Shown piece by piece: positions 13,282 to 32,000 of a DNA stretch of 32,000 nucleotides. Source of the DNA: PVC group bacterium (GTDB lineage Bacteria > GCA-001730085 > JADFSZ01). The stretch is taken from NCBI GenBank assembly GCA_022560555.1, contig JADFSZ010000001.1, forward strand, positions 4,006-36,005. The letters run 5' to 3'. Below the pieces are notes generated by a model, which was not told the origin of the DNA, did not search any database, and saw nothing but the letters and a program-made list of their open reading frames with translations. The number at the start of each line of letters is the position of its first letter. Positions within the stretch are counted from its first letter, which is position 1. A program made the position numbers and the translations under genes.

Positions 13282-13331
13282 CTCTTTTTAAGAGGAAAAT
13301 TTTTAAAGAAACATATCTTAAAGAAAAAATT

Positions 13332-15895: not shown

Positions 15896-17332
15896 ATACA
15901 ATTTTTGGTATCCGTAATCTCCTTCTAATAGCGCGTTCGTAAAATTAAATTTACGCTGATATTCTAGAATTTCTTTCTTGTCTCTTACAACGAAAAACGC
16001 TTTCGATTTATTCGGGGGCAACTCTTCGATTGCTTTTTTGGGTTTATCAAATAACCAAACCGTATCCGGCAATCCTTTCATGCGCCCTGCTAAGATCAGA
16101 GAGTAAGGATCCGCTGCAGAAGAGATGTACACAAAGACATTCGAATCAGTTTGATACACATCTCTGATTTTTTTGGCCAATTCCAGAGGATGAAACTCGT
16201 CCAGATAATAAGGCGCAACAAGATCATCCTGCTCCTGTTGAGGCGAAAGAATTGAAGAGAAAATATGGATATTTTGTTTAACGAATTGGCTCCATACAAC
16301 CGTAAGGATGAGAATAATAACAGCGATTATTTTACCATAATACGGATACCGCAATCGTACCCACGATAAGGCCGTCTTCAGCCATACAGAAGATCCAAAA
16401 TACCATAAAGGAAGGAAAATTAGAAACACGCGTGGGTAGGGAGACGGATTTAGGATCAATATTATAATCAACGGAAGCATAAATGAAAAAAGGATCATGG
16501 TATGACACGAATGGTTTTTTAAAAGGCTTGCAAGCCGACGAACTCTTAAAAATATTCCCAGAAGTATCACGAGCACCATCGGCAGACACGCCATAAACAC
16601 CGCTCCATATAAGTGTTCCATAGTTTGCCACGGACTACTCCAACCTGCCTGCCGTCCGGCAAATGTCACCATACTGGACATCTTGGGAAGATACATAATA
16701 CCCGAAGACAATGCGAGACTGCTGATCACCAACCTAGTTTTAAGACAACCTCTCGATTGGGTAAGAAAGAGTGGCATTAGGGCGATAAAATAAAAAATAT
16801 TGAAGGGAACAACCCACACAGCTAAAAAGGTCAAGCCCACAAAAAGAAACCCGCCGCGTCTCACTTCCCCGCGCCGAATAAGCTGCGCACTCCAGAGACC
16901 GAGAACGCCCAGCCACATGGACAACATATATCCGCGAACCGCGCATCCATAGATACTAAATGGTACAGATGTGATAAAAGCCGTTATTCCGAGGAGGGTA
17001 GGCCAAAAACCGAGCGGACGATACCACACACGCCATATTGTGATAACAACACATCCGGATAAGACAAAAGACAACAAACGAAACAAAAAAATGGGATCTT
17101 GAAACCATGATTCTAAAGCTAAAGTCCAGAACCGCAATAGTACATTAAATCCGATATGATTATTGGGAATAGGATAATAGGAAAATATCTCTAAAAAAGA
17201 AGGGAGTGTAACAAATTCAATAATCGTTAATGCCTCATCATACCATAAAGGGCGGCTTAAATGAGGCACCAACAGAGTCCATGACACACACAGTGTAAGC
17301 AGGCCCACCAATTGTACTTTTCGTTCCCTCAT
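15875..17332 (-). CDS. GT-C fold membrane glycosyltransferase (family 39/PMT_2/ArnT-like)
   Basis: 485 aa with about 11 predicted TM helices, a first-loop acidic motif PLWYDEALTI typical of GT39/83-type enzymes, and a ~130-aa soluble C-terminal domain. The 3' end overlaps the menH 3' end by 21 nt (convergent). Confidence 0.55.
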   Translation of the reverse strand: MRERKVQLVGLLTLCVSWTLLVPHLSRPLWYDEALTIIEFVTLPSFLEIFSYYPIPNNHIGFNVLLRFWTLALESWFQDPIFLFRLLSFVLSGCVVITIWRVWYRPLGFWPTLLGITAFITSVPFSIYGCAVRGYMLSMWLGVLGLWSAQLIRRGEVRRGGFLFVGLTFLAVWVVPFNIFYFIALMPLFLTQSRGCLKTRLVISSLALSSGIMYLPKMSSMVTFAGRQAGWSSPWQTMEHLYGAVFMACLPMVLVILLGIFLRVRRLASLLKNHSCHTMILFSFMLPLIIILILNPSPYPRVFLIFLPLWYFGSSVWLKTALSWVRLRYPYYGKIIAVIILILTVVWSQFVKQNIHIFSSILSPQQEQDDLVAPYYLDEFHPLELAKKIRDVYQTDSNVFVYISSAADPYSLILAGRMKGLPDTVWLFDKPKKAIEELPPNKSKAFFVVRDKKEILEYQRKFNFTNALLEGDYGYQKLYLMGVEL

Positions 17333-17368: not shown

Positions 17369-17809
17369 TTACCTTGATGTGTCTTCATAAATAATATAAT
17401 TGGGAAATTTATCGGCATATTTTCCAATCCACTCTAATGCGGCCTCTTCTCCCGTAAGCACACGACCCTCTTTTTGGAAGATTTCTTTTTTATATTGTTC
17501 AATATAACAGATCTGTTCTACCATACGGATTCGATTTTCGTCTTGAGGATTTACAAATTTCACACCAACATGATATTCACCTTTGGTCTTCCGGCACCAA
17601 ACAACAGTGGCTTTAACCTGAAATACCGGATCAACCAAAGGGATTTTTATATGAATGATGGCCCCTTCCTTTAGGGTGACCTTTGATCGAAATGATAATC
17701 CGCCTACACTGATATCATCTAAATAATCTTTTGTATCCACGGCAACATCGGCAAGCTGAATATCAATGGGAATATTTGACGGATGTCTGATGAATTCGCG
17801 AAATTTCAT
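17369..17809 (-). CDS. Stand-alone PilZ domain protein (c-di-GMP receptor type) with ~50-aa helical C-terminal extension
   Basis: N-terminal REFIR (RxxxR) and DISVGG (DxSxxG), with a beta-rich core between and after the two motifs. AGAGGG Shine-Dalgarno 5 nt upstream. Confidence 0.8.
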   Translation of the reverse strand: MKFREFIRHPSNIPIDIQLADVAVDTKDYLDDISVGGLSFRSKVTLKEGAIIHIKIPLVDPVFQVKATVVWCRKTKGEYHVGVKFVNPQDENRIRMVEQICYIEQYKKEIFQKEGRVLTGEEAALEWIGKYADKFPNYIIYEDTSR

Positions 17810-18765: not shown

Positions 18766-19626
18766 TTATTCAAAATTCAGGTTTCCCGAATCGTTGCGAA
18801 TTTCGGAAATCGGTTCTCGATCTTCGATTACACATGCTTCAACTAAAGCCCCGTAAATGGCATGTCGATGCTGTTCATCCGGCATACGCTCCGGGTGCCA
18901 TTGCACCAACAAGCCAAAAGGATAGTCTTCAAGCTCCATAGCCTCAACAACACCATCGGGGCTCGTGGCAACCACTTTGAGCCCTTTCCCGGGTTTTTTA
19001 ACGGCCTGATGGTGAGACGAATTGACCTCAAGAGCCCCATCTCCCAGAATGTCCGCCAAATAAGATTTTTCACTAATGATAATAGGATGAGTGGCATCCT
19101 GGCTTGAGCGATGTGTCTCGGCATGATCAATTTCCGAGGGAATATCCTGAATCAAGGTTCCCTCCCGCACAACATTCACAAATTGGATTCCGAGACACAC
19201 CCCTAAAACAGGCTTTTTTGTTTGAAGCCATTCAGTGATAAATTGTTTCTCAAAGGCAAACCGCCTCTCACTCATCACGTTGACAGTTTCATCATTATGA
19301 TCATCATAAAATTCCGGGGGTATATCCATTCCACCGGTCAAAACAACACCGTCCAAAAGATCAAGGTAATAACGAATAATAGTTTCATCCGTAACAGGGG
19401 GTAAAACAACCGGGATGCCACCCGCCGCGATAACAGCTTGAACATAACTGTCGGATACAGTGATTTTTCCAAAGCCCTCCGTCTCATTGTCGTAAAACAT
19501 ACAAGTGATACCGATCAATGGTCTTTGTTCGGCTCCGGTAAGTACGGGCAAGAAACATAAACCAACAAAAAGGAGGACCCCTAAAATGAAAATCCTTTTG
19601 GAATAATTTTTTCGGATTTTTAACAT
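18766..19626 (-). CDS. Peptidase C26 / class-I glutamine amidotransferase-like gamma-glutamyl hydrolase (PuuD-like) with N-terminal signal/anchor sequence
   Basis: Nucleophile elbow GVCLGIQFVN, HHQAV and the His-Glu pair in VQWHPE. Start set to the ATG at 19626 (MLKIRKNYSKRIFILGVLLFVGLCFLPVLTGAEQ). The longer track ORF to 19875 runs through the csp terminator and the csp CDS in another frame. Confidence 0.82.
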   Translation of the reverse strand: MLKIRKNYSKRIFILGVLLFVGLCFLPVLTGAEQRPLIGITCMFYDNETEGFGKITVSDSYVQAVIAAGGIPVVLPPVTDETIIRYYLDLLDGVVLTGGMDIPPEFYDDHNDETVNVMSERRFAFEKQFITEWLQTKKPVLGVCLGIQFVNVVREGTLIQDIPSEIDHAETHRSSQDATHPIIISEKSYLADILGDGALEVNSSHHQAVKKPGKGLKVVATSPDGVVEAMELEDYPFGLLVQWHPERMPDEQHRHAIYGALVEACVIEDREPISEIRNDSGNLNFE

Positions 19627-19654
19627 ATCATAAAACTTTGTGTGGAAGTGTCCC

Positions 19655-19689
19655 AAAAAAGTAAATGCGGCATCCCAAAGACTGCCGCA
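19655..19689 (-). terminator. Rho-independent terminator downstream of csp
   Basis: Perfect 7-bp inverted repeat (tgcggca at 19666-19672, tgccgca at 19683-19689) with a 10-nt loop. On the - strand it is followed by UUUACUUUUUU (19655-19665). It lies 25 nt after the csp stop. Confidence 0.6.
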
Positions 19690-19714
19690 CTTCCTTAATT
19701 TTGCGATATGTTCT

Positions 19715-19927
19715 CTACTGCTGAAGAGTAACGTCTTGGGCTTGCAGCCCCTTTTCTCCTTCTGCAACGGTAAATTCGACTTTTTGTCCTTCTTCGAGAG
19801 ACTTGTAACCATCCCCGCTAATGGCCTTAAAATGCACGAAGACATCGCTGCCTTGTTCTCGTGTGATAAAACCATAACCCTTAGAAGAATTGAACCATTT
19901 TACAGTACCTTGCTCACGCTCTGCCAT
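19715..19927 (-). CDS. cspA: Cold-shock protein, CspA family
   Basis: 70 aa. RNP-1 KGYGFI and RNP-2 VFVHF motifs ([27 protein letters not shown]). Strong Shine-Dalgarno AAGGGGGTG upstream. Confidence 0.95.
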
Positions 19928-20092: not shown

Positions 20093-20121
20093 ATTATACA
20101 AAAATTTATTTAAGGATTCAA
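20093..20121 (-). promoter_or_regulatory. csp promoter: TTGAAT - 17 nt - TG-extended TATAAT
   Basis: Read on the - strand: ttgaat (20121-20116), tg (20100-20099), tataat (20098-20093). The -35 element overlaps the stop codon of the upstream methyltransferase gene. Confidence 0.55.
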
Positions 20122-21005
20122 TCAAGATTTTCCCGTATACTCTCCTTCTTTTGGAGCACCGTTAGAGTCATCAGGGAGATGCTCATAAAGGAGCTAAACC
20201 GTAAAAAAAGACAATCGAGAAACTTGAACGGAAAAAGCATCAAACAGAACACAAGATACAGATAGCCCCGCAGCCGAGTCGACCCAAAAGAAAACACAAT
20301 AGAAAGAAATTCAATAAAAAAAGCTAAAAATGCGGAAATGGGGCCGGCCACACTGCGTTGCTCTTCTGTTTTCCACCCTCCGAAAAGCTCCCGCACCCCA
20401 TGATGCGTAAATCGATGAAAATCATCGGGAGAGGCATGAAACGGGTATAAAAACGGGATCACATGCAGTCCCCATCCGCCTTTCTTTGTACATTCAGCTA
20501 TTTTGTCCGCGATTTCCCATGGTTTTTTGACATGTTCCAAGACGCTTCGTGATACAAATGCATCCACGCTTTCTTTTTTAAAAGGCAGTTTTTGAAGATC
20601 ACTGACGATATCTACTTCGTCATAGTCAGTAAAATCCAAGCAGATGATATCATCATGTATGCGCCTGTTGCCGCACCCGATATCCACGACGATTTGCTCA
20701 TGCGGGTTCACGTAACGCAATAAAGTTTTTTTGAAATTAAAAGGATAGTCAGGCGCGATGATGTCCACACCAATCGAATAATAATATTTCCCCAGTGTTT
20801 TTTTTAAGCGCCCTTTAAAACTGTTCAAATCATCATGGGGTCCAACGTGATCACAAAAATATATTTTCCCATTTCGTATTTTATACGTGTTTGAACAAGC
20901 CAAGCAGCAAAGCCCCGATGGCTCATATTTCAAATCACCTTGGCAGTGAGGACAGGCCAAAAAAGGAAGTATTTTTTGAAGACGAGTCTGTTGGGACATA
21001 ATCAT
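20118..21005 (-). CDS. Class I SAM-dependent methyltransferase with N-terminal Trm112-like zinc ribbon and C-terminal membrane anchor
   Basis: CPHCQGDL...CLACSNTYKIRNGKIYF (4-Cys ribbon), SAM motif VVDIGCGNRR, acidic DF and SRSVLEHV (Methyltransf_11-like). Two hydrophobic helices at the C-terminus (ISAFLAFFIEFLSIVF, YLYLVFCLMLFPF). Last gene of the filament operon, 32 nt after the preceding stop. Confidence 0.78.
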   Translation of the reverse strand: MIMSQQTRLQKILPFLACPHCQGDLKYEPSGLCCLACSNTYKIRNGKIYFCDHVGPHDDLNSFKGRLKKTLGKYYYSIGVDIIAPDYPFNFKKTLLRYVNPHEQIVVDIGCGNRRIHDDIICLDFTDYDEVDIVSDLQKLPFKKESVDAFVSRSVLEHVKKPWEIADKIAECTKKGGWGLHVIPFLYPFHASPDDFHRFTHHGVRELFGGWKTEEQRSVAGPISAFLAFFIEFLSIVFSFGSTRLRGYLYLVFCLMLFPFKFLDCLFLRFSSFMSISLMTLTVLQKKESIRENLD

Positions 21006-21037
21006 TAAGCGGATGTTTAGGTGTTCTTGAGATCTCC

Positions 21038-21508
21038 TTATTTAGCGATTTTCAGAATTTTTAATTTAGTAATTTCCCCTCTAATCAAACTGTTAATATT
21101 CTGAAAGAAGCTTTTCATAGTCTGAACGTACTTGTCGAGTCGTGGATCAGTTAGATTTGTCATACTTTCCAAGCTTTTAATATTCACATCGTTTGTATTT
21201 TCAACAGATGTCAGCCAGTAAATTATGTATTGCGCGGCCTGCTCGAGACGGCTCTCTCTGGGGATAGTTTCATAAATACCCACCATGATGAAATACGCGT
21301 CCAGTTGCGTCACAGTCATAACAGACGCGTCCCACAATGTGTTAGCCAGTATGACTTCCTTCGTCTTTGTGAGAACGGTTTTTAATTCTACAGAAACTTG
21401 AAACATCTTATCGCGCATACTCTTAAGCTCCGAAATCGTGCTTTCGGCATAAGCCGCCGATGAGGCGAAGAAAATACCTATCGTGAATAAACAAATTATT
21501 TTTTTCAT
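21038..21508 (-). CDS. Secreted/periplasmic hypothetical protein (no family recognised)
   Basis: 156 aa. Clear Sec signal peptide MKKIICLFTIGIFFASSAAYA|E and a predicted helical remainder. AAGGAG Shine-Dalgarno 5 nt upstream. Operon context supports that it is real. Confidence 0.6.
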   Translation of the reverse strand: MKKIICLFTIGIFFASSAAYAESTISELKSMRDKMFQVSVELKTVLTKTKEVILANTLWDASVMTVTQLDAYFIMVGIYETIPRESRLEQAAQYIIYWLTSVENTNDVNIKSLESMTNLTDPRLDKYVQTMKSFFQNINSLIRGEITKLKILKIAK

Positions 21509-21532
21509 AATTTCTCCTTTGTGTGGTTATTT

Positions 21533-22099
21533 TTAGAATTCCTTTTGCGGAATAATCAGTTTTGAGATAACCATATTGCATCTGGCGATACTTGAATCCT
21601 TTGACTTAGGGCCAATTTGAAAACTTTCAACCGTTAAAAATTTAGTTGAGCTTTCAATGCCATGCATAAATTCCACAACTTGTTCCATTTGGGCTTCATA
21701 ATTTATGTTAACTTGAAACTTTTTGGCAATCCCAAGCTCTTTGATTCCCGACGGCTTAATGTCGATTAAATATACCGAAGAACGATTGGCCATCCCTTCA
21801 ACTTCTTTTAAGAGTGATGTCATACCCTGCTCCTCTGTGGCCATGCCTACCAGTAATTTCTCATATTTTTTCATTTCTTTTTCGATACGATCTTTTTGAG
21901 CGAGAATCTTTAAGCTTCTCTTAATCTCGGCCTCCTTGGCCGCAATATCCTGATTGTACATACGAAATTTATCGATGAGCGGCTTGACGAGCATATTATC
22001 AAGAAGCGCGAGCGAGCAAAACAACACAGCTCCGTAGAATACAAGCCTTTCTCTTTTTGAAAGTTTTTTAACGAAATCAACAATAAAATTCAAATTCAC
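21533..22099 (-). CDS. PilO/GspM-like bitopic assembly protein
   Basis: 188 aa, GTG start with AAGGAG Shine-Dalgarno 7 nt upstream. Short cytoplasmic N-terminus, one TM helix (LVFYGAVLFCSLALL), a coiled-coil segment and a ~90-aa C-terminal alpha/beta domain. The architecture and its position after the PilM/N-like gene match PilO/GspM. Confidence 0.6.
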   Translation of the reverse strand: MNLNFIVDFVKKLSKRERLVFYGAVLFCSLALLDNMLVKPLIDKFRMYNQDIAAKEAEIKRSLKILAQKDRIEKEMKKYEKLLVGMATEEQGMTSLLKEVEGMANRSSVYLIDIKPSGIKELGIAKKFQVNINYEAQMEQVVEFMHGIESSTKFLTVESFQIGPKSKDSSIARCNMVISKLIIPQKEF

Positions 22100-22111
22100 C
22101 GTACGGCTCCT

Positions 22112-23566
22112 TTAATCTGAAACACTCGCCAATAAACAGGATATTTCAAAATCCGTCACATCACGAAGCCCGTCTTTTCTTTTGGCTGTGTATTTAGTTT
22201 TGACATTTTTTAGGAATTCAGATTTTTCCATATGATCAACAAAATAAAACACGGTTGACATCGATCGAGCCGTGCCGCGAATCGAAAATCGCCCCCGGCT
22301 ATCATAACGGATAAAATTCAGCTCCAAGTCCGAAGGGATTAATTGATAAATCTCCGTTAAAACTAAAAGAGAATACCCGCGCTTCGATTGATAGTTCCGT
22401 ATGAGCGTAATTTTACTAAAGCTGTCTTCAAGTTTTTCTGCCGCTTCATTTATGGGTTTGTATTTGGTTTCCAAATTAGAGATATAAACACTCTTAAATG
22501 CCATATTCGAAAGCAGAACAGAAAAACCCAGGATAAAAATTATAAGAATAAGAATACCTGTTTTGATCATGTCACGGCTGCGCTCTTCAAGTTGACGCTG
22601 TATTTTTACCTCCTGGGGGATCAAGTTGACTTTAAGATCCTTCCCTGCCGACATGACTCCCATCAGGGCAAGCAAAGAAATCCCTTTCTCTTTTTCCAGA
22701 TTTTGAGCCGCGCTTTTTGAAATGTGGAAATACTTTTCATAGGGTAGTATCTTGACGGGAAGAAGAAGGTTGTCCGATATCGTTTCTTCTGCTCCCACAA
22801 ACATTTCTACCGCTCCCGTAATGAAAGCCTCCCCGGGACGCTTTCCTATATCTTCAGACAAATACGCCTCCAAAGATTTTTTCAACTCATCCGTAAAACG
22901 CTGCAAAGATTGTTCGCGATTACCGGCCATTTCCACGCATCCCAAAGGGATGTTTCGAATAAAAATTACCTTTGCTTGAGAGACAATCGTAAAATCTGTG
23001 TGGGTTTCGTCAATATGGATCATATTGATTGGGGTATTGCTTGAGCTTTTGATTTTAAATATTTTTGAGGCACTCCAGGCTAATGATTCCGGAGCCAAAT
23101 ATACGTTTTCCAATGCTAAGCCCGCATTTTTAAAAATATCGATATATCTTCGAATAATATTTTTCGAGACAATCACCAAAAGCGCTTTTGTATAGTTTTG
23201 TTTGTATACTTCGATGTTGATATAGTCCACAATAATGTCTTCGCGGGAATGAGGGGTATAGCGGCTCGCTTGCAGATTGATAATCTCTTTGATTTCATCA
23301 GGATCAACAGAGGGCAGCTCAATATTTCTTGTAATCACTTGATGACTTGGTACGATCGTCAAGACACCGGCATTACGGGCTTTAGATTCTTCACAATACG
23401 CTTGTATTTGATGCGCGATATCCTCGTCACTCATGGAGCTGATGTTACACGTGTAAATATCCTGGATGTCATGACGAGAGCTCCCCATATGAATAAACCG
23501 CAATGTATCTCCCGAAAGATCAATTCCGACAAGGGCCGTACTTTTCGTCGCGCTTAGATTAAACAT
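22112..23566 (-). CDS. PilM::PilN fusion protein (GspL-equivalent platform protein)
   Basis: 484 aa. The N-terminal ~312 aa are actin-like and PilM-type (ALVGIDLSGDTLRF...). Then come the PilN hallmark VNLIPQEV, a TM helix GILILIIFILGFSVLLSNMAF and a ~120-aa periplasmic domain (coordinates 22115-22630). Confidence 0.72.
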   Translation of the reverse strand: MFNLSATKSTALVGIDLSGDTLRFIHMGSSRHDIQDIYTCNISSMSDEDIAHQIQAYCEESKARNAGVLTIVPSHQVITRNIELPSVDPDEIKEIINLQASRYTPHSREDIIVDYINIEVYKQNYTKALLVIVSKNIIRRYIDIFKNAGLALENVYLAPESLAWSASKIFKIKSSSNTPINMIHIDETHTDFTIVSQAKVIFIRNIPLGCVEMAGNREQSLQRFTDELKKSLEAYLSEDIGKRPGEAFITGAVEMFVGAEETISDNLLLPVKILPYEKYFHISKSAAQNLEKEKGISLLALMGVMSAGKDLKVNLIPQEVKIQRQLEERSRDMIKTGILILIIFILGFSVLLSNMAFKSVYISNLETKYKPINEAAEKLEDSFSKITLIRNYQSKRGYSLLVLTEIYQLIPSDLELNFIRYDSRGRFSIRGTARSMSTVFYFVDHMEKSEFLKNVKTKYTAKRKDGLRDVTDFEISCLLASVSD

Positions 23567-23569
23567 CCC

Positions 23570-24631
23570 TTAGTTCTCCCGCCAAAAAAGTATTTTTCCT
23601 TTGCGATCCGCAACGCATGTAACATCCATTTTTATTTTCTGATTCGCCAAAAAAGCCCGGCATTGAATTTTAAATATTTGAGAATGTGTTTTCAATTTCT
23701 GATCAGCCACAATACTGATCTTCGCGAGCTCTGAAGGGCTTAAATGCGTTCGCTGACTCAACTGAGGCACAATGCTTGATGGATTTGTAAAAATGCCGTC
23801 ATCCGCCGTACCGGGCACCCCATCCTCACCAAAACGAAATGTCATAATTTTGTCGATAATACTCTTATCTAAGCCCAATCCATAAAAAACTTCCCTCGAG
23901 GCCGTGTTCGCGTTAATCTTTCCGTTGCCGTAAATCGTGACATAATTCTTAATAATGTCAACCACATCTTTGTTGACCCCTTTCACTAAATACAATTCAT
24001 CAAAAACTTGAAAAGGAGCGTCTTTCGCTTCGTACGCGAATGCCCCGCTCCGATATTCCCGATCTTCCGCGCTTCCCAGAGGGATGGAGAGCTGGCTGTC
24101 TTCGTCCCGCCAATCTACAATCGCGGCGGCGATTTCTTGAGCTTCTATTTTATCAAAACCAAGGCCGTCTCTCAAAAGTTGGCGCAGAATAATATCATCT
24201 TCTATATTAATATTGATCTTTCTTTCTTCATCAACAAACCCAAATCGAGTTATCAGTTCATTTGACACAATATCACGGTCCACATAGGATATCTCACAAA
24301 AGCCATCTCCAATAGGCATCTTTTTAAAAACAGCTTCTGTGTCAAACCAATACTCGCCTAAAGATGTGTACTCAATAAACTCATCCTCTCCGGGAATAAT
24401 CATTGTGATTGCTTTTTTAACACCGGCTTCCGCGATAGAACGGAGCTTTCCTCTCTCATTTATTCGGGTGGCCAATGTAAGCTTTTGACGAACGGTAACA
24501 CTGGTTATAATCGCAAAAGTGGACAACATCAACAGTGTCCATAAGGTCAAAATAAGGATACTTCCCTGAACTCTACCCTCCCGAAAGGATGCTAACTGTT
24601 TTCGCATAACGTATCTTTTTTGTTCCGTCAT
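23570..24631 (-). CDS. gspK: T2SS minor pseudopilin GspK-like
   Basis: 353 aa. N-terminal hydrophobic segment GSILILTLWTLLMLSTFAI, which lacks the Glu+5. Large globular domain with the GspK-type helix-hairpin-helix block KINANTASREVFYGLGLDKSIIDKIMTFR. Confidence 0.78.
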   Translation of the reverse strand: MTEQKRYVMRKQLASFREGRVQGSILILTLWTLLMLSTFAIITSVTVRQKLTLATRINERGKLRSIAEAGVKKAITMIIPGEDEFIEYTSLGEYWFDTEAVFKKMPIGDGFCEISYVDRDIVSNELITRFGFVDEERKININIEDDIILRQLLRDGLGFDKIEAQEIAAAIVDWRDEDSQLSIPLGSAEDREYRSGAFAYEAKDAPFQVFDELYLVKGVNKDVVDIIKNYVTIYGNGKINANTASREVFYGLGLDKSIIDKIMTFRFGEDGVPGTADDGIFTNPSSIVPQLSQRTHLSPSELAKISIVADQKLKTHSQIFKIQCRAFLANQKIKMDVTCVADRKGKILFWREN

Positions 24632-25163
24632 TAATGATGAGCTTCAAGCGCACGGCTAAAGGCATTTTCTCTTCACTCCAGCGTTCCAGCCACACATAAT
24701 TATTTGTCTCAGTATCGTATTTATAGTATTCAAAAGAGGCGGCTTCAATGTTTTCTAATTCGGATGATATTTCCCCGTCTTTGCCGCGGTATAACATGGA
24801 AATATCCTTAAATGCCCTTGTTAAGGTTTTATTCCGCGCGTCATACGTGTAACTGACTTGGCCGATGGTTTTTACCTCAAACTCTTTTGTGTAAACAATT
24901 GTTGGACATTCAAATAACGTTTTTTGGCCGACAAATTGAATACTTGAATATGCATAGCTGTTTCGAATGTCTTCGGAATATCTTTCTAAAAAAATGTTGG
25001 CATTTTCTAGAGAGACCTCGTTTTGAACTCGGCCCCAGATCATAATCCCCTTAGAAAGCGTTGTGTAAATGACAACACTCACAACCCCCAACAGGGATAC
25101 GACTAAAAGAAGCTCGATGAGCGTCAGGCCTTTAGAATTCCGGACTTTCTTGATAATACGCAT
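24573..25163 (-). CDS. Minor pseudopilin, GspJ-like (prepilin-type N-terminal cleavage/methylation domain)
   Basis: Leader MRIIKKVRNSKG | LTLIELLLVVSLLGV with Glu at +5. Size (~184 aa mature) and the C-terminal MPLAVRLKLII block resemble GspJ. Confidence 0.7.
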   Translation of the reverse strand: MRIIKKVRNSKGLTLIELLLVVSLLGVVSVVIYTTLSKGIMIWGRVQNEVSLENANIFLERYSEDIRNSYAYSSIQFVGQKTLFECPTIVYTKEFEVKTIGQVSYTYDARNKTLTRAFKDISMLYRGKDGEISSELENIEAASFEYYKYDTETNNYVWLERWSEEKMPLAVRLKLIINDGTKKIRYAKTVSILSGG

Positions 25164-25566
25164 AAGCTGTTCTTTCTATGTGAAATTCTCTTGTCTGGTT
25201 TTGACGCTCCCGATTTATATAAAATGAAACTTGAAATAGTAATTTTTTTCTGTCTTTGAGCTTATAATTAAGATTCCACGGATACTTGTCAACACCAACA
25301 ATAAGCGTACCGCTTGTGCGCATCTGAGGCCCCAGACTGCCATATCTCATAAGCTGGTTTTGGGCTTCCCAAATTTTCTCATCCACCCAGGGCATAACGT
25401 TCAGGTAGTCTTTATAGTGACTTAAAAGATCTATATTCACAAAAAATGTTTGAAAGATGGAAACAATCCCCATAGACAATATGGAAACGGCAACCAGTAT
25501 TTCGACTAAAGTAAAACCGCTTTTTCGCCCATCTTTTTTTCTAGTCCTTCCAATTCCGCACATCAT
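25132..25566 (-). CDS. Minor pseudopilin, GspI-like (prepilin-type N-terminal domain)
   Basis: ...GRKSG | FTLVEILVAVSILSMG with Glu+5 and ~127 aa mature. Start placed at the ATG at 25566 (GAGGA ~8 nt upstream). The track start at 25587 is also possible. Confidence 0.68.
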   Translation of the reverse strand: MMCGIGRTRKKDGRKSGFTLVEILVAVSILSMGIVSIFQTFFVNIDLLSHYKDYLNVMPWVDEKIWEAQNQLMRYGSLGPQMRTSGTLIVGVDKYPWNLNYKLKDRKKLLFQVSFYINRERQNQTREFHIERTAYAYYQESPEF

Positions 25567-26056
25567 CGTCACTTTCCTCAATACCATCTTTGCCTATGGA
25601 ATAGAGATCATAATCCTTGCGATGATCTCCCGGGCTTTTATACTGATACGGACGCCCCCAGGGGTCGGTAATGTCTGTTTCTAAATAGGGACCGTGCCAG
25701 TTGGAGGCAGAGGCGGTTTTGCTAAGGAGGGCGCTTAAGCCTTCTGATGTAGACGGAAACGCTCCGTTATCCAGTTCATAGAGTTTGAGCGCTGTCGCAA
25801 TATTAGCCTTAATGTCGGCTTCAGCAATAGTCACACGGGCCTGCTCGCTGCGCCCGGTGAGACGGGGCATCACCATCGCGGCTAAAGCACCGATGATAAT
25901 TACAACGAGCAAAAGCTCAACAAGGGTAAAACCCTGTTGATGGCGAAAGCCATTAACAGATCGGAGTTTTGATTTTTGCTTCACAGTATGCTTTCGATTT
26001 TGTCTTACATCTGTCGACTGTTGACTGTCGACTATTGACCCAAAAATATTTGTCAT
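25541..26056 (-). CDS. gspG: Major pseudopilin GspG
   Basis: G|FTLVELLLVVIIIGALAAMVMPR followed by GspG blocks ALKLYELDNGAFPS, GPYLE, DPWGRPYQYKSPG, YDLYSIGKDG and DDVRNW. Start set to the ATG at 26056, which has AAGGAG 8 nt upstream and avoids overlap with the peptidase gene. Confidence 0.9.
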   Translation of the reverse strand: MTNIFGSIVDSQQSTDVRQNRKHTVKQKSKLRSVNGFRHQQGFTLVELLLVVIIIGALAAMVMPRLTGRSEQARVTIAEADIKANIATALKLYELDNGAFPSTSEGLSALLSKTASASNWHGPYLETDITDPWGRPYQYKSPGDHRKDYDLYSIGKDGIEESDDDVRNWKD

Positions 26057-26070
26057 TTCGTTTTCTCCTT

Positions 26071-26985
26071 TTACGAGCTTAATTTTTCTTCTAAATACTC
26101 CCGCCATCGTTCTTCAAATTCATCCAAATTTTTCATTTTATTCGGGTACGCACTTTGAAGAGCCTCCTCGAGTTTTTTGCCGTCCCGCAGCTCACGGCAA
26201 AACTGGGTAAATCTTTTTGCGCCGAACCGATCGATCATAAAGTTAATCATAGCCACGGATTCCAAATAATATGTTTTGACGAGACTCTCAACATCCAGGA
26301 AAAGGGCCGCCATTTTACCTTCCCGCGTTTTCGTGGCTCGAATATATATCCGATCCATATCCTTCAAAAGGCGAATATCGAGTTTCATCATGTCTTCAAT
26401 ACTGAGAAGTTTGTCCTCTTTATAATATTCCATGGCTGTTTGGCTCATGTATTCTCTCTTGGATTCTTCCGCCCATTGCGCCACTCCTTCATCCAGCCAG
26501 AGAGGAATCTCCCCTTTAAATCCCACAAAATCACGGAAAATCAAATGCGCCATTTCATGAGGCAGCAAGGATTCCACAAACCCTTCTCCCCAGGCATAGC
26601 TGACGATTTGTTTGTGCGTATAATCAGCCATGCCATGCGACCATTCAGGCTGATCGGTCGCTTGAATAAAGGCCTTATGATCGGCAAAGATATAAATCGG
26701 AACACGGTTATCCCATGTCCAAAAACCCGAATATCTCGGATAACCGAGTCCTTGAGCGATCCGCACATAATATTTTTCGGCTTTATCAAGTACGTTCTTG
26801 GCAAACTTGTCGTCATCCGTATAATATACAAAAAAATGTTCCCCGCTCACTTTCTTCCAGTCATAATTATCCAGGCTGACACGAATAGCTCCTTTCTGCC
26901 CGGCAAAGAGATCGCTCGTGTGGCCCAGGGCTAACAACAAAGCGCCCGCAATCCATATACTTTTCAATTGATGCATATGTTTCAT
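26071..26985 (-). CDS. Secreted zinc metallopeptidase, Peptidase_MA_2-like (HExxH + downstream Glu)
   Basis: 304 aa. Signal peptide (SIWIAGALLLALGHTSDLFAG), LLPHEMAHLIF (HExxH) and WLDEGVAQWAEE ~20 residues later (gluzincin-type third ligand). Confidence 0.72.
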   Translation of the reverse strand: MKHMHQLKSIWIAGALLLALGHTSDLFAGQKGAIRVSLDNYDWKKVSGEHFFVYYTDDDKFAKNVLDKAEKYYVRIAQGLGYPRYSGFWTWDNRVPIYIFADHKAFIQATDQPEWSHGMADYTHKQIVSYAWGEGFVESLLPHEMAHLIFRDFVGFKGEIPLWLDEGVAQWAEESKREYMSQTAMEYYKEDKLLSIEDMMKLDIRLLKDMDRIYIRATKTREGKMAALFLDVESLVKTYYLESVAMINFMIDRFGAKRFTQFCRELRDGKKLEEALQSAYPNKMKNLDEFEERWREYLEEKLSS

Positions 26986-27063
26986 TCACGTTCACTAAAT
27001 TGCATGTAAACGGTTCACAGTTTTCGATTTTCAGTTTTTGGTTTTCGGTTATCGGTCAACGAA

Positions 27064-28275
27064 CTACATATTGATTTCAAATATTGGCAAAAGCATCGCC
27101 ATGACTATAAAACCCACTATGAGGCCCATGAAAAGGATAATGAGAGGCTCCATGAGATTGGCTAATATGCGTGACACCTCATCCGTATCGCGCTCATAAC
27201 TTGAGGCCACCTCACTTAAGGCTTCATCCAAAGATCCGGTCTCTTCACCTACAATAAGGAGATTGGTCATAAAAAGAGGAAAAACTTTGACGTCTTTGAG
27301 GCTTTCACCAAGAGGACTGCCGCGTTCCAATTGTTCATAACTCGTTTTTAGCGCGTTTTTCAGAACCTCATTTTTGAGAACCGGTATTGACACATCGAGC
27401 GCCTTGAGAATCGTGATTCCGTTTCGAATCAAAATCTCAAGTGTCCGCGCAAAACGTGATATCTCGGATTTGAGAATAAATTCTCCGTAAATCGGAAGTT
27501 TTAGTTGGAATCGGCCGAAAGAAAGTTTTCCTGATTCTGTTTTAAGGCTCCGGCTAATGACCATACCGAGAAACACACAAGCAATAAGTATCCAAAGCCA
27601 CCAGTCTTGGAGAAAAGTGCTGATGTCAATCAAAATTCTTGTCGGCATCGGGAGCTCTTGTCCCGTCCGGATAAACATCTCGGCCAATTTCGGCACAACA
27701 TAGCTCAACATAAAAATGACGGTTCCGAGTCCAACAAACGCCATCAGCGAGGGATAAACCATCGCCATCCGTAAACGAGCCATCAAAGCATGCTGTTTTT
27801 CCCGGTAATCTGAGATACGCATTAAGGCTTCAGGAAGAGATCCGCTGTTTTCTCCGGCATGAACAATCGAGATATACAAGGATGGGAAAACCTTCGGATA
27901 CTTTTCTAAGGCCGAAGAAAAGGTTCCTCCGTCTTCAACAATGTCATGAATATCATTCAGCATAAAATTGAGACTTGCCTTGTCCGCCTGCTCGGCAATA
28001 ATGGATAAGGCCCTGAGAATGGGGACCCCGGACTTAAGAAGGCTGGCCATCTGACGGCTAAAAAGCGTAATCTGCCTGTGTTTAATCCTTCCCGGCTTGA
28101 TTTTGCTGATTTCTTTCGGAGGCTGAGTTTTGTTCTCTTCTTTTTTTTCCAGCTTAATGGGAAGCAAGCCAAGAGCGTTAATTTTTTCTACGGCATCCTG
28201 CTCGTTATCGGCCTCGATTTGTCCGTCAATAACGTTTTGGGTATCTTTTTTCGCGCGGTAATGAAAAGTAACCAT
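27064..28275 (-). CDS. gspF: Type II secretion/type IV pilus platform protein GspF/PilC family
   Basis: 403 aa. N-terminal FHYRAKKDTQNVIDGQIEA, two T2SSF repeats (FSRQMASLLKSGVPILRAL...; FARTLEILIRNGITILKAL...) and three TM segments. The start lies 1 nt after the gspE stop. Confidence 0.9.
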   Translation of the reverse strand: MVTFHYRAKKDTQNVIDGQIEADNEQDAVEKINALGLLPIKLEKKEENKTQPPKEISKIKPGRIKHRQITLFSRQMASLLKSGVPILRALSIIAEQADKASLNFMLNDIHDIVEDGGTFSSALEKYPKVFPSLYISIVHAGENSGSLPEALMRISDYREKQHALMARLRMAMVYPSLMAFVGLGTVIFMLSYVVPKLAEMFIRTGQELPMPTRILIDISTFLQDWWLWILIACVFLGMVISRSLKTESGKLSFGRFQLKLPIYGEFILKSEISRFARTLEILIRNGITILKALDVSIPVLKNEVLKNALKTSYEQLERGSPLGESLKDVKVFPLFMTNLLIVGEETGSLDEALSEVASSYERDTDEVSRILANLMEPLIILFMGLIVGFIVMAMLLPIFEINM

Positions 28276-28276
28276 A

Positions 28277-30460
28277 TCACTCGTTCAGATCGGAATCAAT
28301 ATACCGATTCAATTTTGCTCTGTCAGCACTTGCAATATCTAAATAACAAACGGCAATATCATACGTTTTGTTCGAAACATCTTCATCAACACGAACAGCT
28401 TTCGCGAGACAGACAATAGGATTTTCGTCACCTTCCAATTCAACCTTAAGATCCAGTAAAGAACCGATCGCAACGGGTTTATGTGCCACAAACAAAATCC
28501 CTCCAGCAGATACATTTTTTGTGACCGCTAACTGCTCAGGCTTAAACACCCCTTTAATCAATTCGTCATGAGATTTGTAAACTTTGTAAGAAATATTCAG
28601 GTTCCGGGCCAATCTAGAATAATTACGCCGCCCCTGAACATTTTCGCTTGATTCATCGCTAAGGGTACTAGGCGGTGGAGATCCCTTGGTCGGCCTCGTT
28701 CCTGTTGCAATGGCTGTTCTCACAGGCACCCCGGGATCCACTATGGGTGTAACCTGCATGATTTCTTCCGCAGTTGTGACACCTTGGACAACTTTCTGCC
28801 AACCGTCTTGTCTTAAAACACGCATACCTTTTTGGATGGCAACACGTTTGATATGGCTGGACGATGTTTTTTTAATAATCAAATCTTTGATTTCATCATC
28901 CACAAGCAATATCTCGTAGATCGCTACACGGCCAAAAAAACCAGTAAAATTGCAATTGGGGCACCCTTTCCCTCGATAAATTTTCATATTCGCGTCTTTC
29001 AGCCCTAAATCCCGGGCCAGGGTTTCTTTGAGTTCTTTCGGTGTGATTTTGTCTTCATATTTACAATCGGAACAGATCATACGTATCAGTCTTTGAGCGA
29101 TAAAGGCTTCCACGCTTGAGGCTACGAGATAGGGCTCCACGCCGATGTCCACAAGACGCGTAATACCGCTCGACGCGTCATTCGTATGAAGAGTGGAAAA
29201 TATCAGATGTCCCGTCAAAGCCACGCGAATAGCGATGGAAGCCGTCTCAAGGTCTCTCACTTCGCCCACCATGATCACATCGGGGTCATGCCGCAAGATA
29301 CTTCTCAGCCCCCGCGCGAAATCAAGTCCGATTTCAGACATAACCTGCATCTGTGTAATCCCCTTCATTTCATATTCCACGGGATCCTCGATGGTGATAA
29401 TTTTACGTTCTCTTGTGTTAATGCGATTCAAACAGGAATAAAGAGTGGTTGTTTTTCCGCTTCCCGTGGGGCCCGTGAGAAATACAATGCCGTGGGGTTT
29501 TTGTATCAGGCTTTCAAAGACTCTTAATTCCGCCATGGCTAGACCCAGCTTTTCCAAACTGAACAGACGACTGCTCGGCAACATTCTCACGACGACACTC
29601 TCTCCGAAAGGCGTGGGAACAGTGGAGATACGCAAGTCCAAAACATCGTCCTGAACTTTCACCATGGCGCGTCCATCTTGCGGCAATCGCCTCTCAACAA
29701 TGTTCAAGCTGGACATAATTTTAATGCGTGAAATAATCGCGTTAATATTTTTTTTGACGCCGGGTGAAATATTTGTCTCATAAAGAAGCCCGTCGATACG
29801 GTACCTTAAAGATACACCGCCGCGAAACGGCTCAATATGAATATCCGTCGCGCGTTTACGCCATCCTTCTAAAATGATTTGATTCACGAGCTTGATAACA
29901 GACTCATCATCAGCTAGATCCTCTAAATCCGTAAGCTCGTCTTTCTCTTGTGCCTTTGAGTCCTTTTTCGAGGCAGTCTCCGCAACGACTGACATTCTGT
30001 CCAAGGTTTCAGCCCCTAAACCATAACTTCTTTTCAATGCTTCCATCATATCTTTTGTCGATGTTAAAACAAACGCGACTTCATAACCGAGCTGCGTGCG
30101 TATCTCATCCTGGGTCTTCAGATCCATGGGGGCATTCACAGCAACAGTCAACGTTCGTCCTTTAATACGCATCGGTAAAAAACGATAGTATGTTGCGATT
30201 TTGACGGGAACAATATCCAGGACTTTCTGGTCTACCTCGGCATTGCGGACATCAACAATTTCAAGCCCAAGCGTATCGGAAAGAACCTGTAAAATATCCG
30301 TTTCTTTAATCACTGATTTACTGATAAGGACCTGCTGCAGCGTTGCACCTGATTGACCAATTTCTTTAAGTAAAGGCTCGAGCTTCTCTTTGGACAACAT
30401 GCCTTTTTGCATCAAAGCTTCTAAGAGGACTGTGTCATGTTTTTTCGTGCTTGGCATCAT
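28277..30460 (-). CDS. gspE: GspE/PilB-family secretion ATPase with N-terminal MshEN-like (T2SSE_N) domain and C-terminal PilZ domain
   Basis: 727 aa, one uninterrupted ORF. Walker A GPTGSGKTTT, Walker B IIMVGEVRD, His box TGHLIFSTLHTND and tetracysteine CSDC...CPNC. After a Pro/Ser/Thr-rich linker comes a PilZ with RRNYSR (RRxxxR) and NVSAGG (NxSxxG). Confidence 0.9.
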   Translation of the reverse strand: MMPSTKKHDTVLLEALMQKGMLSKEKLEPLLKEIGQSGATLQQVLISKSVIKETDILQVLSDTLGLEIVDVRNAEVDQKVLDIVPVKIATYYRFLPMRIKGRTLTVAVNAPMDLKTQDEIRTQLGYEVAFVLTSTKDMMEALKRSYGLGAETLDRMSVVAETASKKDSKAQEKDELTDLEDLADDESVIKLVNQIILEGWRKRATDIHIEPFRGGVSLRYRIDGLLYETNISPGVKKNINAIISRIKIMSSLNIVERRLPQDGRAMVKVQDDVLDLRISTVPTPFGESVVVRMLPSSRLFSLEKLGLAMAELRVFESLIQKPHGIVFLTGPTGSGKTTTLYSCLNRINTRERKIITIEDPVEYEMKGITQMQVMSEIGLDFARGLRSILRHDPDVIMVGEVRDLETASIAIRVALTGHLIFSTLHTNDASSGITRLVDIGVEPYLVASSVEAFIAQRLIRMICSDCKYEDKITPKELKETLARDLGLKDANMKIYRGKGCPNCNFTGFFGRVAIYEILLVDDEIKDLIIKKTSSSHIKRVAIQKGMRVLRQDGWQKVVQGVTTAEEIMQVTPIVDPGVPVRTAIATGTRPTKGSPPPSTLSDESSENVQGRRNYSRLARNLNISYKVYKSHDELIKGVFKPEQLAVTKNVSAGGILFVAHKPVAIGSLLDLKVELEGDENPIVCLAKAVRVDEDVSNKTYDIAVCYLDIASADRAKLNRYIDSDLNE

Positions 30461-30475
30461 TAAGCTCTTTACTGT

Positions 30476-30931
30476 TTATTTGTATTTTGATTTAACATGA
30501 TCACGGTATCTTTCAATGACATAATCGATATCACTTTTCGTGGTCAATACCAGCTTTACTTTTAGGCCCCGGGCTTCGGCCTCGGCCTTTTGAAGCACGT
30601 CAAGATCCAAGGGATTTGTGAGAGCCATGGTCACAGACACATCGTCTTCAGACACCGGGACACAATGAAAATCCATCACCAACGAAGGACTGTATTTCCC
30701 CAAAAGCTTCCAGTCCACATATTTATATTTTAACTCAACTATGGGAATAGTAAACTGCTCAGATAAAACGGCTAAAAGCTCACTCTCCTTGATCCACCGC
30801 TTCTTGAGCAGGATCTCCCCCAGGAACTGATCCGAAATTTTCTGTTCTTTGAGTGCCAAATTTAACTGTTCCGGTTTCAGCATCCCTTTTTCAACAAGAA
30901 TTTCACCGATTTTTTTCTTTTTTCGCTCCAT
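30476..30931 (-). CDS. Stand-alone MshEN / T2SSE_N domain protein (putative c-di-GMP receptor)
   Basis: 151 aa with no ATPase domain. KIGEILVEKGMLKPEQLNLALKEQ - KISDQ - FLGEILLKKRWIKESELLAVLSEQ matches the tandem 24-residue MshEN motif with its 5-residue spacer. The rest resembles the GspE N1 domain (HCVPVSEDDVSVTMALTNPLDLDVL). Confidence 0.8.
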   Translation of the reverse strand: MERKKKKIGEILVEKGMLKPEQLNLALKEQKISDQFLGEILLKKRWIKESELLAVLSEQFTIPIVELKYKYVDWKLLGKYSPSLVMDFHCVPVSEDDVSVTMALTNPLDLDVLQKAEAEARGLKVKLVLTTKSDIDYVIERYRDHVKSKYK

Positions 30932-30951: not shown

Positions 30952-32000
30952 TCATTTGTTATTGATTTGGTCCAATGCTCCGATCAGGTAAAACTTGTTT
31001 TCAGGTACCTGATCCACTCGACCGGACATAATTTTCTCGCATCCGGCCAATGTCTTATCCAAAGGCACATATTCTCCTTTTTTTCCTGTATAAGCCTCGG
31101 CAACCGAGAAAGGCTGTGTCAGGAAAAACTGAAGTTTCCGCGCGCGTTCATATGTCACGCGATCGGCCATAGACAATTCATCGACGCCTATCACAAGCAC
31201 AATGCGCCTCAATTCTTCATATTTCTGAAACATACGGATCACTTCATGCGCAATATCCACATGCCGTTTTCCAATAATATCGATATCTAAATTAGCACTG
31301 GAAGACAGTAAAGGATCCACCGCAGGATAAATTCCTTGCTGCACTTTTTCACGGGATAAGACCATTACGTTATCAAGAAAACTAAAAAGAGCCACCACCG
31401 CCGGATCCGTCAAATCATCCGCCGGCACATAAACGGCTTCAATAGACGTTATCGAGCCTCCTCCCTGGCTTGTTCGAATCCGTTCATGAAATTCACTGGC
31501 TTCGGCCATCATCGTCGGCTGGTACCCCGTCTCGGAGGGAACGCGCCCCATGAGGGTGGATATCTCCGCTCCGGCTTGGATATAACGAAAAATATTATCC
31601 ACAAAAAGGAGGACATCTTTGTTTTTTCTTTGGATGGATTCGGCCAACGTGATCCCCGTCATCGCGACGCCGAATCGAGCTCCCGGAGGTTCGTTCATTT
31701 GCCCGAACACCATCATAGTTTTTGAAAGAACACCATGATGCTTAAGCTCAAGGTAGAGTTCGTTTCCCTCTCGAATCCGTTCTCCGATTCCGGTAAAAAC
31801 ACAGGACCCTTCGTGTTCTTTGACAATATGCTGAATAATTTCCAACGTTAAAACACTCTTTCCCATGCCCGCTCCCCCCAAAATCCCTGTTTTGGATCCC
31901 TTCACAAGAGGAAAAAGCAAATCAATGACTTTCAATCCGGTTTCCAAAACCTCAAACGATTTCTCCTTTTTCTCACTTGTGTTAATGAGGCTGCCCATAT
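30952..32000 (-). CDS. atpD: F1-ATPase beta-subunit-like protein, divergent; 5' end probably beyond window edge
   Basis: 348 aa visible. P-loop GGAGMGKS, GIGERIREGNELY, QMNEPPGAR, DNIFRYIQAGAEIS, VYVPADDLTDPA, YPAVDPL and DELSMAD in place of DELSEED. The Walker A lies ~40 aa from the in-window ATG at 31998, versus ~150 aa in canonical beta subunits, so the N-terminal domain is most likely off-window. Confidence 0.85.
   Translation of the reverse strand, partial: MGSLINTSEKKEKSFEVLETGLKVIDLLFPLVKGSKTGILGGAGMGKSVLTLEIIQHIVKEHEGSCVFTGIGERIREGNELYLELKHHGVLSKTMMVFGQMNEPPGARFGVAMTGITLAESIQRKNKDVLLFVDNIFRYIQAGAEISTLMGRVPSETGYQPTMMAEASEFHERIRTSQGGGSITSIEAVYVPADDLTDPAVVALFSFLDNVMVLSREKVQQGIYPAVDPLLSSSANLDIDIIGKRHVDIAHEVIRMFQKYEELRRIVLVIGVDELSMADRVTYERARKLQFFLTQPFSVAEAYTGKKGEYVPLDKTLAGCEKIMSGRVDQVPENKFYLIGALDQINNK

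Follow-up and report, generated by a model that had tools for sequence, protein, structure and literature searches.

The stretch analysed here, a 32-kb window of contig JADFSZ010000001.1 (assembly GCA_022560555.1), carries on its minus strand a compact operon of twelve open reading frames (ORFs) for a type IV filament, which runs from 30931 down to 20118. The operon is from an uncultured Omnitrophota bacterium, and its nearest GspF kin among GTDB species genomes are metagenome-assembled genomes (MAGs) of Candidatus Omnitrophota, with a top identity of 53%. Omnitrophota are widespread, uncultured, and ultra-small organisms that are thought to be epibionts or predators. The reading that we hold with somewhat more confidence than doubt is that the operon forms the filament-assembly half of a super-operon conserved among Omnitrophota, in which a large protein with immunoglobulin (Ig) repeats, an F-type ATPase without subunit a, and a pseudopilus from the lineage of type II secretion systems (T2SS) make up an integrated machine. 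The mixture of T2SS and type IV pilus parts by which the operon was first characterised is not special. The absences in cis are special, and the main point is the ATPase neighbour, which had been overlooked.

Joining of the filament operon to an F-type ATPase

Domains were called with Pfam and NCBIfam using the cut-offs of the models, structural kin were sought in the PDB, and related loci (given here by labels of the form L001) were fetched with flanks of 10 kb each.

What lies upstream of the filament genes? The preliminary description placed the start of the operon at 30931 and treated the F1-beta-like gene beyond it as an occupant of the slot that often holds gspC and gspD. The run of genes stands as described; the start does not. 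The beta gene, of which the C-terminal 348 codons are visible before it runs off the window (30952..32000; Pfam ATP-synt_ab 231 bits), ends 20 nt upstream of the first filament gene, and beta is the last gene of a conserved, co-operonic F-type ATPase module with which the filament module is continuous. Across 65 loci the gap between beta and the filament genes has a median of 11 nt, with an overlap in 11 of the 65, and in 66 of 69 loci no more than 1.5 kb separates GspE from beta. The closest view of the region upstream comes from L001, a short ENA contig whose beta and MshEN-only proteins are identical to those of the window and whose GspE is 98% identical. Its genes run in the order gamma, beta, MshEN-only, GspE, GspF, so that gamma-beta stands directly upstream of MshEN.

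The order of the modules recurs in the 21 Omnitrophota-type loci that include enough upstream sequence. In these loci, alpha, gamma, beta, sometimes the MshEN-only gene, GspE, and GspF are followed by a second half that often begins with the peptidase and continues with GspG, two minor pseudopilins, GspK, a PilM::PilN fusion, and a PilO/GspM-type protein; the GspI-like and GspJ-like positions are kept in related loci. The tail of the operon fares less well in this comparison. Its last two genes, a secreted orphan and a methyltransferase, are indeed co-directional with the others, but the methyltransferase never recurs and the orphan does so in five loci only. The conserved module therefore ends at the PilO/GspM gene (21533).

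Within the window the twelve ORFs are tightly packed, in agreement with the gaps of 0-78 nt and several overlaps first described. From the upstream to the downstream end of the operon, the spacing is 15, 1, and 78 nt, followed by overlaps of 37, 47, 32, and 59 nt (computed from longest-ORF starts) and then by gaps of 3, 12, 24, and 32 nt. The domain identities proposed gene by gene for the run are all upheld by Pfam. A scan for promoters and terminators returned counts close to the shuffle expectation, with no convincing terminator within the operon. A horizontal island was considered and rejected, since the GC content of the operon (0.38-0.47) is like that of the rest of the window.

The co-location of ATPase and filament genes is already published. 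Seymour et al. (2023, Nat Microbiol, PMC10066038) reported, for all Omnitrophota classes and for 57 of 66 contigs, that genes of an F-type ATPase lie no more than 10 kb from type IV filament genes, and proposed a role in attachment or surface motility on hosts. The filament was labelled 'T4aP' by TXSScan and the alpha subunit 'type 2/3, Mycoplasma-like' (PMC10066038). In the main text of that study the word 'secretin' is absent, the adjacency of a large ORF is not stated, and no mention was found of a missing subunit a, a variable c-ring carboxylate, or c-di-GMP domains; its supplements have no pilQ, pilD, or secretin entries (PMC10066038). West-Roberts et al. describe a different secretion locus, in which gspD is upstream of giant genes. 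New here are the lack of a subunit a gene in the fetched loci, the variation of the c-ring carboxylate, the dual receptors predicted for c-di-GMP (cyclic di-GMP), and the metallopeptidase within the operon.

The ATPase module and the large surface protein

In the related loci the ATPase module consists of epsilon (only the beta-sandwich domain, PF02823), c (PF00137), a b-delta fusion (OSCP), alpha, gamma, and beta. In eight loci (L015, L018, L019, L020, L022, L024, L027, and L050) epsilon is found between gspE and gspF, for example at L015:9760-9999, and in this subclade the stretch from the large ORF to the c gene contains the peptidase gene and one for a receiver-GGDEF protein. No gene for subunit a, and no unassigned ORF, is present between the large ORF and beta in the fetched loci; a query with E. 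coli AtpB gave 0 matches in any locus, although such a search is weak for membrane proteins. The c-subunit residue that aligns to E. coli D61 is E in 38 of 74 loci, Q in 27, and hydrophobic or other in nine, and switches between E and Q occur between near-identical sequences (an example of the gene is L002:2478-2690). Because the carboxylate is lost in 36 of the 74 loci, roughly half of these c-rings are predicted to be unable to bind a coupling ion. Both subunit a and the carboxylate were checked in relatives rather than in the window genome.

The catalytic head gives a different picture. The alpha subunit of L002 (3542-5017) passes canonical atpA models (570 vs 554 and 543 vs 484) and fails MMOB1660 (397 vs 600) and MSC_0619 (309 vs 520). 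Likewise, the beta subunit of L089 (12251-13675) passes the canonical F0F1 equivalog and fails the Mycoplasma gliding and type-3 models. In the PDB, the window beta matches canonical F1 beta at 394-416 bits vs 340 bits for the Mycoplasma G1-ATPase beta, and alpha and beta are nearest to Bacillus-type F1, not to the G1-ATPase of Mycoplasma mobile. A Mycoplasma-type identity was thus rejected at the level of hidden Markov models (HMMs), in a comparison made with the L002 alpha and not by phylogeny. Judged from sequence, the head of this ATPase appears ordinary and its membrane part does not.

Directly upstream of epsilon lies a large ORF (L058-L137, e.g., L089:2-8806), which ends a median of 12 nt before epsilon. 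The reading frame runs past the edge of all 10-kb flanks, so that its N-terminus is never reached, and the visible part has at least 2,934 aa. This part contains Kre9/KNH-type Ig-like repeats, a conserved C-terminal region, and a single C-terminal transmembrane helix. All 54 database homologues are fragments at contig ends.

Filament proteins of the T2SS lineage

Do the filament genes belong to a T2SS or to a type IV pilus? The clearest answer comes from the major pseudopilin, GspG (25541..26107; Pfam T2SSG 109 bits and N_methyl), which scores 139 with the NCBIfam equivalog TIGR01710 against a cut-off of 88.85 and is the sole protein of the operon to pass such a model; PilA models align with it over the N-terminal 45 residues only. 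The likely true start of GspG is the ATG at 26056, with AAGGAG 8 nt before it. Even from this start the leader has ~42 aa before G|FTLVE, which is unusually long; relatives have a total length of 131-138 aa, which implies short leaders.

The other components are less decisive one by one. The assembly ATPase of the GspE/PilB type (28277..30460, 727 aa; Pfam T2SSE 428, MshEN 61, and PilZ 38 bits) scores 584 with the NCBIfam GspE model (cut-off 630) and 571 with PilB, both under their cut-offs, and in the PDB its ATPase core is equally near PilB/PilF and EpsE. The inner-membrane platform protein GspF (27064..28275; Pfam T2SSF 202 bits, two repeats) scores 383 with GspF (cut-off 424) vs 311 and 289 with PilC, and the PDB search does not discriminate. 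Three minor pseudopilins follow GspG: a weakly GspI-like protein with G|FTLVE (25132..25587; Pfam N_methyl; NCBIfam gspI 24, cut-off 44), a weakly GspJ-like protein with G|LTLIE (24573..25163; N_methyl; T2SSJ 25 bits, cut-off 28; gspJ 19), and the tip subunit GspK, which lacks Glu5 (23570..24631; Pfam T2SSK_1st 53.5, cut-off 26.2). The NCBIfam model T2SS_GspK gives 70, below its cut-off of 130, and a query with E. coli GspK detects the family.

The alignment proteins are a PilM::PilN fusion of 484 aa (22112..23566; Pfam PilM_2 54 and PilN 32 bits) and a bitopic protein of the PilO/GspM type (21533..22099; Pfam T2SSM_b 23.4, PilO 22.6), for which the NCBIfam model T2SS_GspM_XpsM gives 51.7, below the cut-off of 60. 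The fusion has a GspL-type architecture, in which the PilN N-terminal motif 'VNLIPQE' precedes a transmembrane helix. It gives no T2SSL match, and its likeness, in the PDB too, is to PilM only; a homologous fusion in one complete T2SS operon has a faint T2SSL match. PilM::PilN is a putative GspL-equivalent that would link the cytoplasmic ATPase to the periplasm.

The preliminary description regarded the combination of T2SS markers and pilus-style alignment proteins as a hybrid and as the distinguishing feature of the operon. This does not hold up. PulL/GspL has been described as a PilM+PilN fusion (PMC10191384), and complete T2SS operons of Omnitrophota and neighbouring phyla have the identical order; therefore, the layout is unremarkable and is ordinary for T2SS in these phyla. 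The T2SS itself is defined as a derivative of the type IVa pilus that arose after the loss of PilT (PMC10191384). The filament genes descend from the T2SS lineage of these phyla, as is supported by GspG passing its cut-off and by GspF, GspK, and GspM being the best NCBIfam models for their proteins.

Absence of an outer-membrane conduit in cis

The absence of a secretin, GspC, and prepilin peptidase in cis, as first described, is confirmed in the window and is shared by the whole clade. Pfam detects no Secretin, T2SSC/PilP, or Peptidase_A24 domain anywhere in the 32 kb, including 21 kb downstream of PilO/M without a secretin, and PilT, PilP, PilQ, and PilY1 are likewise not present in the window. 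None of gspC, gspD, and gspO lies beside the operon in the window; their adjacency is what the preliminary description would have taken as the mark of an ordinary split T2SS. The lack of a GspH-like pseudopilin is also correct: the window has three minor pseudopilins vs four in complete sister operons.

Among the related loci, searches with a 120-sequence secretin HMM and with E. coli GspD found no secretin in ~100 ATPase-containing loci, and detected secretins in nine loci without the ATPase. Of the 100 ATPase-containing loci, 69 reach GspE, and 17 include the whole E-to-O module together with 2-5.6 kb beyond it. The absence is a property of the clade, not an accident of assembly. The case of the prepilin peptidase is different. 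A phmmer search with E. coli GspO at E<=10 gave zero matches in the 137 loci, secretin-bearing ones included, and no such peptidase was seen in four complete T2SS contexts within their 10-kb flanks. Its absence in cis therefore says little, because it is also absent beside complete T2SS operons. The trait specific to the clade is the joint absence in cis of GspC, GspD, the GspA-like protein, and the GspH-like pseudopilin.

A GspE/GspF phylogeny had been suggested as a check, and it is available for GspF as a neighbour-joining tree. In this tree the ATPase-linked loci, with the GspF of the window among them, form one derived clade, and the secretin-bearing loci without the ATPase fall outside it. 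E. coli GspF branches close to where the whole group begins, and E. coli HofC, used as the root, is far off. Each secretin seen in Omnitrophota belongs to a complete T2SS operon that has its own GspE, GspF, and GspC-like genes, on a contig other than those with ATPase-linked loci. Among the 120 matches listed per search, no NCBI locus-tag prefix is common to homologues of the large ORF or peptidase and to secretin matches, which carries no weight either way. Assembly of the filament itself is independent of a secretin, as pilQ pilT mutants keep filaments in the periplasm (PMC10191384).

Predicted c-di-GMP inputs

Two proteins of the operon are predicted receptors of c-di-GMP: a stand-alone MshEN protein and the PilZ domain fused to GspE. 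The MshEN-only protein (30476..30931, 151 aa; Pfam MshEN 45 bits) scores 60.2 with the NCBIfam c-di-GMP_motif model NF053729 (cut-off 38). Its 24-residue motifs 'KIGEILVEKGMLKPEQLNLALKEQ' and 'FLGEILLKKRWIKESELLAVLSEQ', which were tested against the tandem form RLGxxLLxxGLLxxxxLxxxLxxQ, are both conserved in 50 homologues, and the gene is present in 49 of the 69 ATPase-linked loci that include GspE. By contrast, the N-terminal MshEN domain of GspE is degenerate (NF053729 24.6, below 38), with the Gly and Gln positions gone. The PilZ motifs of GspE, RxxxR ('RRNYSR') and NxSxxG ('NVSAGG'), are conserved in 54 homologues. The ATPase of the sister subclade, by comparison, keeps its MshEN motif intact, and in that subclade there is neither a PilZ fusion nor an MshEN-only gene. 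Because the sister MshEN is intact where these additions are absent, c-di-GMP sensing appears to be conserved but repartitioned between proteins.

Further regulators are found in some relatives, where receiver or TPR genes occur between beta and gspE, or after gspF. Those within operons (L059:13179-13544, L089:17470-17847, and L123:13741-14373) include single-domain response-regulator receivers, large CHASE4-GAF-PAS histidine kinases, and a TPR protein.

The metallopeptidase and accessory genes

The gene between gspF and gspG encodes a secreted, small gluzincin metallopeptidase with a signal peptide and the motif HEMAH (26071..26985; Pfam Peptidase_MA_2 53 bits). H143, E144, H147, and E166, which make up HEMAH and the downstream Glu, are invariant in 36 sequences. 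The protein has 1,333 homologues; among the matches listed, all that bear a name are 'hypothetical', and most are from Omnitrophota MAGs. An AlphaFold2 (AF2) model has a pLDDT of 82, and its best folds in the PDB are the peptidase domains of M9 collagenases (E 2.5e-5, TM-score ~0.5). The peptidase is present in 42 ATPase-containing loci, where it is sometimes relocated beside the large upstream ORF. It is plausible that the peptidase is a cargo or a surface-remodelling enzyme.

The orphan (21038..21508) is a secreted, four-helix, lineage-specific accessory protein without a Pfam or NCBIfam match. Homologues directly after PilO/M are found only in L002, L004, L007, L031, and L057. Modelled with AF2 from the single sequence, it forms a generic bundle of four helices (pLDDT 71), and the PDB offers no informative match (best E-value 0.019). 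The last gene encodes a membrane-anchored class-I methyltransferase with C-terminal hydrophobic segments (20118..21005; Pfam Methyltransf_11 and Trm112p). It is co-directional with the operon, but none of the 137 related loci contains a homologue, and it is probably not part of the system. For the same reason, a role in replacing the N-methylation activity of PilD was rejected.

A proposed mechanism and its rivals

How might such a machine work? GspG and the minor pseudopilins would be matured by a prepilin peptidase encoded elsewhere. The GspE hexamer would dock on GspF and on PilM::PilN and PilO/GspM, and would polymerise a short GspG filament primed by a tip of GspK and the GspJ-like and GspI-like proteins. 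Through the stand-alone MshEN protein and the PilZ fusion of GspE, c-di-GMP may gate this activity. The filament would then be likely to deploy or actuate the large surface protein and to release the metallopeptidase during attachment to host or prey cells. That the filament would work with the ATPase and the surface protein is suggested because the clade is without a GspC-GspD conduit and because co-transcription is presumed. In a stronger form, which is possible but which we hold to be doubtful, the three modules are one machine without characterised precedent. In such a machine, a c-ring that does not translocate ions might be rotated by ATP and, along with a pseudopilus acting as a piston in the periplasm, might deploy or move the large adhesin for attachment to host cells or predation on them. 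We think that the operon is not a free-standing general secretion system.

Several observations weigh against an integrated machine of this kind. Functional coupling of the modules is read from conserved gene order and tight spacing alone. The window shows beta alone and L001 adds only gamma, so the large ORF and the Fo-like genes are known from relatives at ~60% GspE identity and not from this genome. The alpha and beta subunits pass canonical F0F1 equivalogs, which points to an ordinary head. The GspF tree is a neighbour-joining tree without support values. Finally, Omnitrophota MAGs encode GspD secretins in other loci, and it is possible that a secretin, GspC/PilP, and peptidase act in trans, which would make this a conventional split T2SS.

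This last possibility is the principal alternative. An ordinary split T2SS would have its secretin, GspC/PilP-like connector, and prepilin peptidase elsewhere, and would secrete folded periplasmic proteins such as the metallopeptidase, with the adjacency of the ATPase being without mechanistic meaning. The parts are of the T2SS type, with GspG above its cut-off and GspF, GspK, and GspM as best models, and GspD-type secretins do exist in Omnitrophota MAGs. No fetched locus, even where a secretin is present, has the prepilin peptidase, so its encoding in trans is normal in these lineages. The operon also contains a gene that resembles a cargo gene, that of the secreted peptidase with a collagenase fold. 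E. coli places T2SS substrates beside its gsp genes; chiA adjoins gsp in the E. coli locus (L138), which we count in favour of a split T2SS. However, the Omnitrophota secretins belong to complete T2SS operons of their own, GspC, GspD, GspA, and one of the minor pseudopilins are jointly missing from the clade, and both the placing of epsilon between gspE and gspF and the median 11-nt junction are hard to obtain by chance synteny. Overall, an ordinary split T2SS deserves serious consideration but seems to us unlikely.

In our view it is improbable that the operon makes a type IVa pilus of the cell surface, with a role in adhesion or twitching, as the TXSScan label in Seymour et al. (2023) implies. 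The published label 'T4aP' (PMC10066038) accords with the PilM_2 and PilN domains, with PilM being the only one of the two among PDB matches, and with the PilB-like N-terminal MshEN domain of an ATPase whose PilB score is near its GspE score. Against these stand the major subunit, which passes the GspG equivalog and is matched by PilA only at its N-terminus, and the presence of a GspK-type tip subunit. PilT, PilP, PilQ, and PilY1 are missing from the window, a secretin is present in no related ATPase-linked locus, and the sister operons are T2SS with T2SSC and with GspD-N0 secretins; moreover, it is the loss of PilT from a type IVa pilus ancestor that defines the T2SS (PMC10191384). Could the operon instead be a decaying remnant of a T2SS, non-functional after the loss of its outer-membrane parts? 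GspC, GspD, the GspH-like pseudopilin, and the peptidase are absent in cis, as decay would have it. Yet every ORF is intact, the module order is conserved over dozens of divergent loci at 40-60% identity, and the catalytic and c-di-GMP motifs are conserved, all of which make a remnant very hard to credit.

One locus class, conserved throughout the phylum, brings together three things that usually occur apart: a filament motor of the T2SS type, a very large surface protein, and an F-type ATPase that apparently cannot translocate ions. Cooperation of the modules would mean that a rotary motor of the F1Fo type performs mechanical work at the surface of cells other than Mycoplasma, and that a machine of the T2SS lineage runs without a secretin of its own. 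Read conservatively, the locus still shows clearly how T2SS modules are rebuilt outside Proteobacteria. In addition, the published labels of 'T4aP' and Mycoplasma-type ATPase are corrected.

Other genes in the window

The remaining genes of the window are housekeeping genes: Mdh, ThiC, QueG, TrxB, UbiE, MenF/D/H, a C26 peptidase, GGACT, MsrB, and a PilZ-only protein. A run on the plus strand (11186-15895) resembles the menaquinone pathway, with a UbiE/MenG-type methyltransferase, a chorismate-binding MenF-like protein, a MenD-like thiamine pyrophosphate enzyme, and a MenH-like hydrolase, and suggests that the organism may make a respiratory quinone. On the minus strand, a Peptidase_C26/glutamine amidotransferase protein (18766-19875) has an N-terminal extension of ~115 aa with a hydrophobic segment and is followed by GGACT and MsrB genes. 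The stand-alone PilZ gene (17369-17809, minus strand) adjoins a gene for a 485-aa polytopic membrane protein (15875-17332, minus strand) that has no Pfam or NCBIfam match. This pair, which is not conserved beside the filament module in relatives, could serve another envelope function controlled by c-di-GMP.

Comparison with known systems

The locus class of Seymour et al. (2023) shares its phylum and arrangement with the operon described here, in which beta is 20 nt upstream in the window and L001 adds gamma. It differs in the identity of the parts: the filament genes are of the T2SS lineage, and alpha and beta are recognised by canonical F0F1 models but not by those of Mycoplasma.

The nearest complete systems are the T2SS operons of Omnitrophota and neighbouring phyla (GCA_016783555.1/L145; L141, L147, L149, and L017). 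They have the same order of GspE with MshEN, GspF, GspG, minor pseudopilins, GspK, PilM::PilN, and PilO/M. After these genes come MerR and a GspA-like AAA_22 protein, then a GspC-like protein (with T2SSC or PDZ), and finally a GspD secretin that has an N0 domain. In contrast to the ATPase-linked operons, they have one extra minor pseudopilin, no PilZ fusion and no MshEN-only gene, and neither the peptidase nor an ATPase upstream. Complete T2SS operons also adjoin very large secreted proteins (L144/L145:1-123, L147:12697-20529, and L149:1-280), which carry Peptidase_S8/He_PIG/Laminin_G_3 or Peptidase_C1/PKD repeats. It may be a general trait of these lineages that a large protein accompanies a T2SS.

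With the canonical proteobacterial T2SS (Gsp/Pul/Eps; E. coli gspC-O, L138), the operon shares the ATPase, platform, GspG, GspK tip, and equivalents of the L and M proteins. However, it is without GspC, GspD, GspH, and GspO in cis, its L-equivalent keeps a full PilM-like domain, and its ATPase bears MshEN and PilZ. The likeness to type IVa pili (PilBCMNOPQ and PilT) lies in the PilM and PilN domains, the PilO-like protein, and the PilB-like N-terminal domain; the differences are a major subunit of the GspG type in place of a PilA-type pilin, and the lack of PilT, PilP, and PilQ.

The F1-like ATPases of Mycoplasma (the type 2 G1-ATPase of the gliding motor and type 3 MSC_0618/0619) resemble the Omnitrophota module in that an F1-type head is added to, or replaces, the proton-coupled synthase. 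By contrast, the alpha and beta of Omnitrophota pass canonical atpA/atpD but neither the MMOB1660/1670 nor the MSC_0618/0619 models, and the module keeps genes for c, b-delta, and epsilon. A last parallel is found in filament ATPases that are controlled by c-di-GMP, such as MshE and the PilB-PilZ-FimX system of Xanthomonas (PMC8389850), where MshEN and PilZ are likewise tied to the assembly ATPase. In the operon described here the same elements are distributed differently: the ATPase bears PilZ as a fusion at its C-terminus, and the intact MshEN motif is carried by a separate protein of 151 aa.

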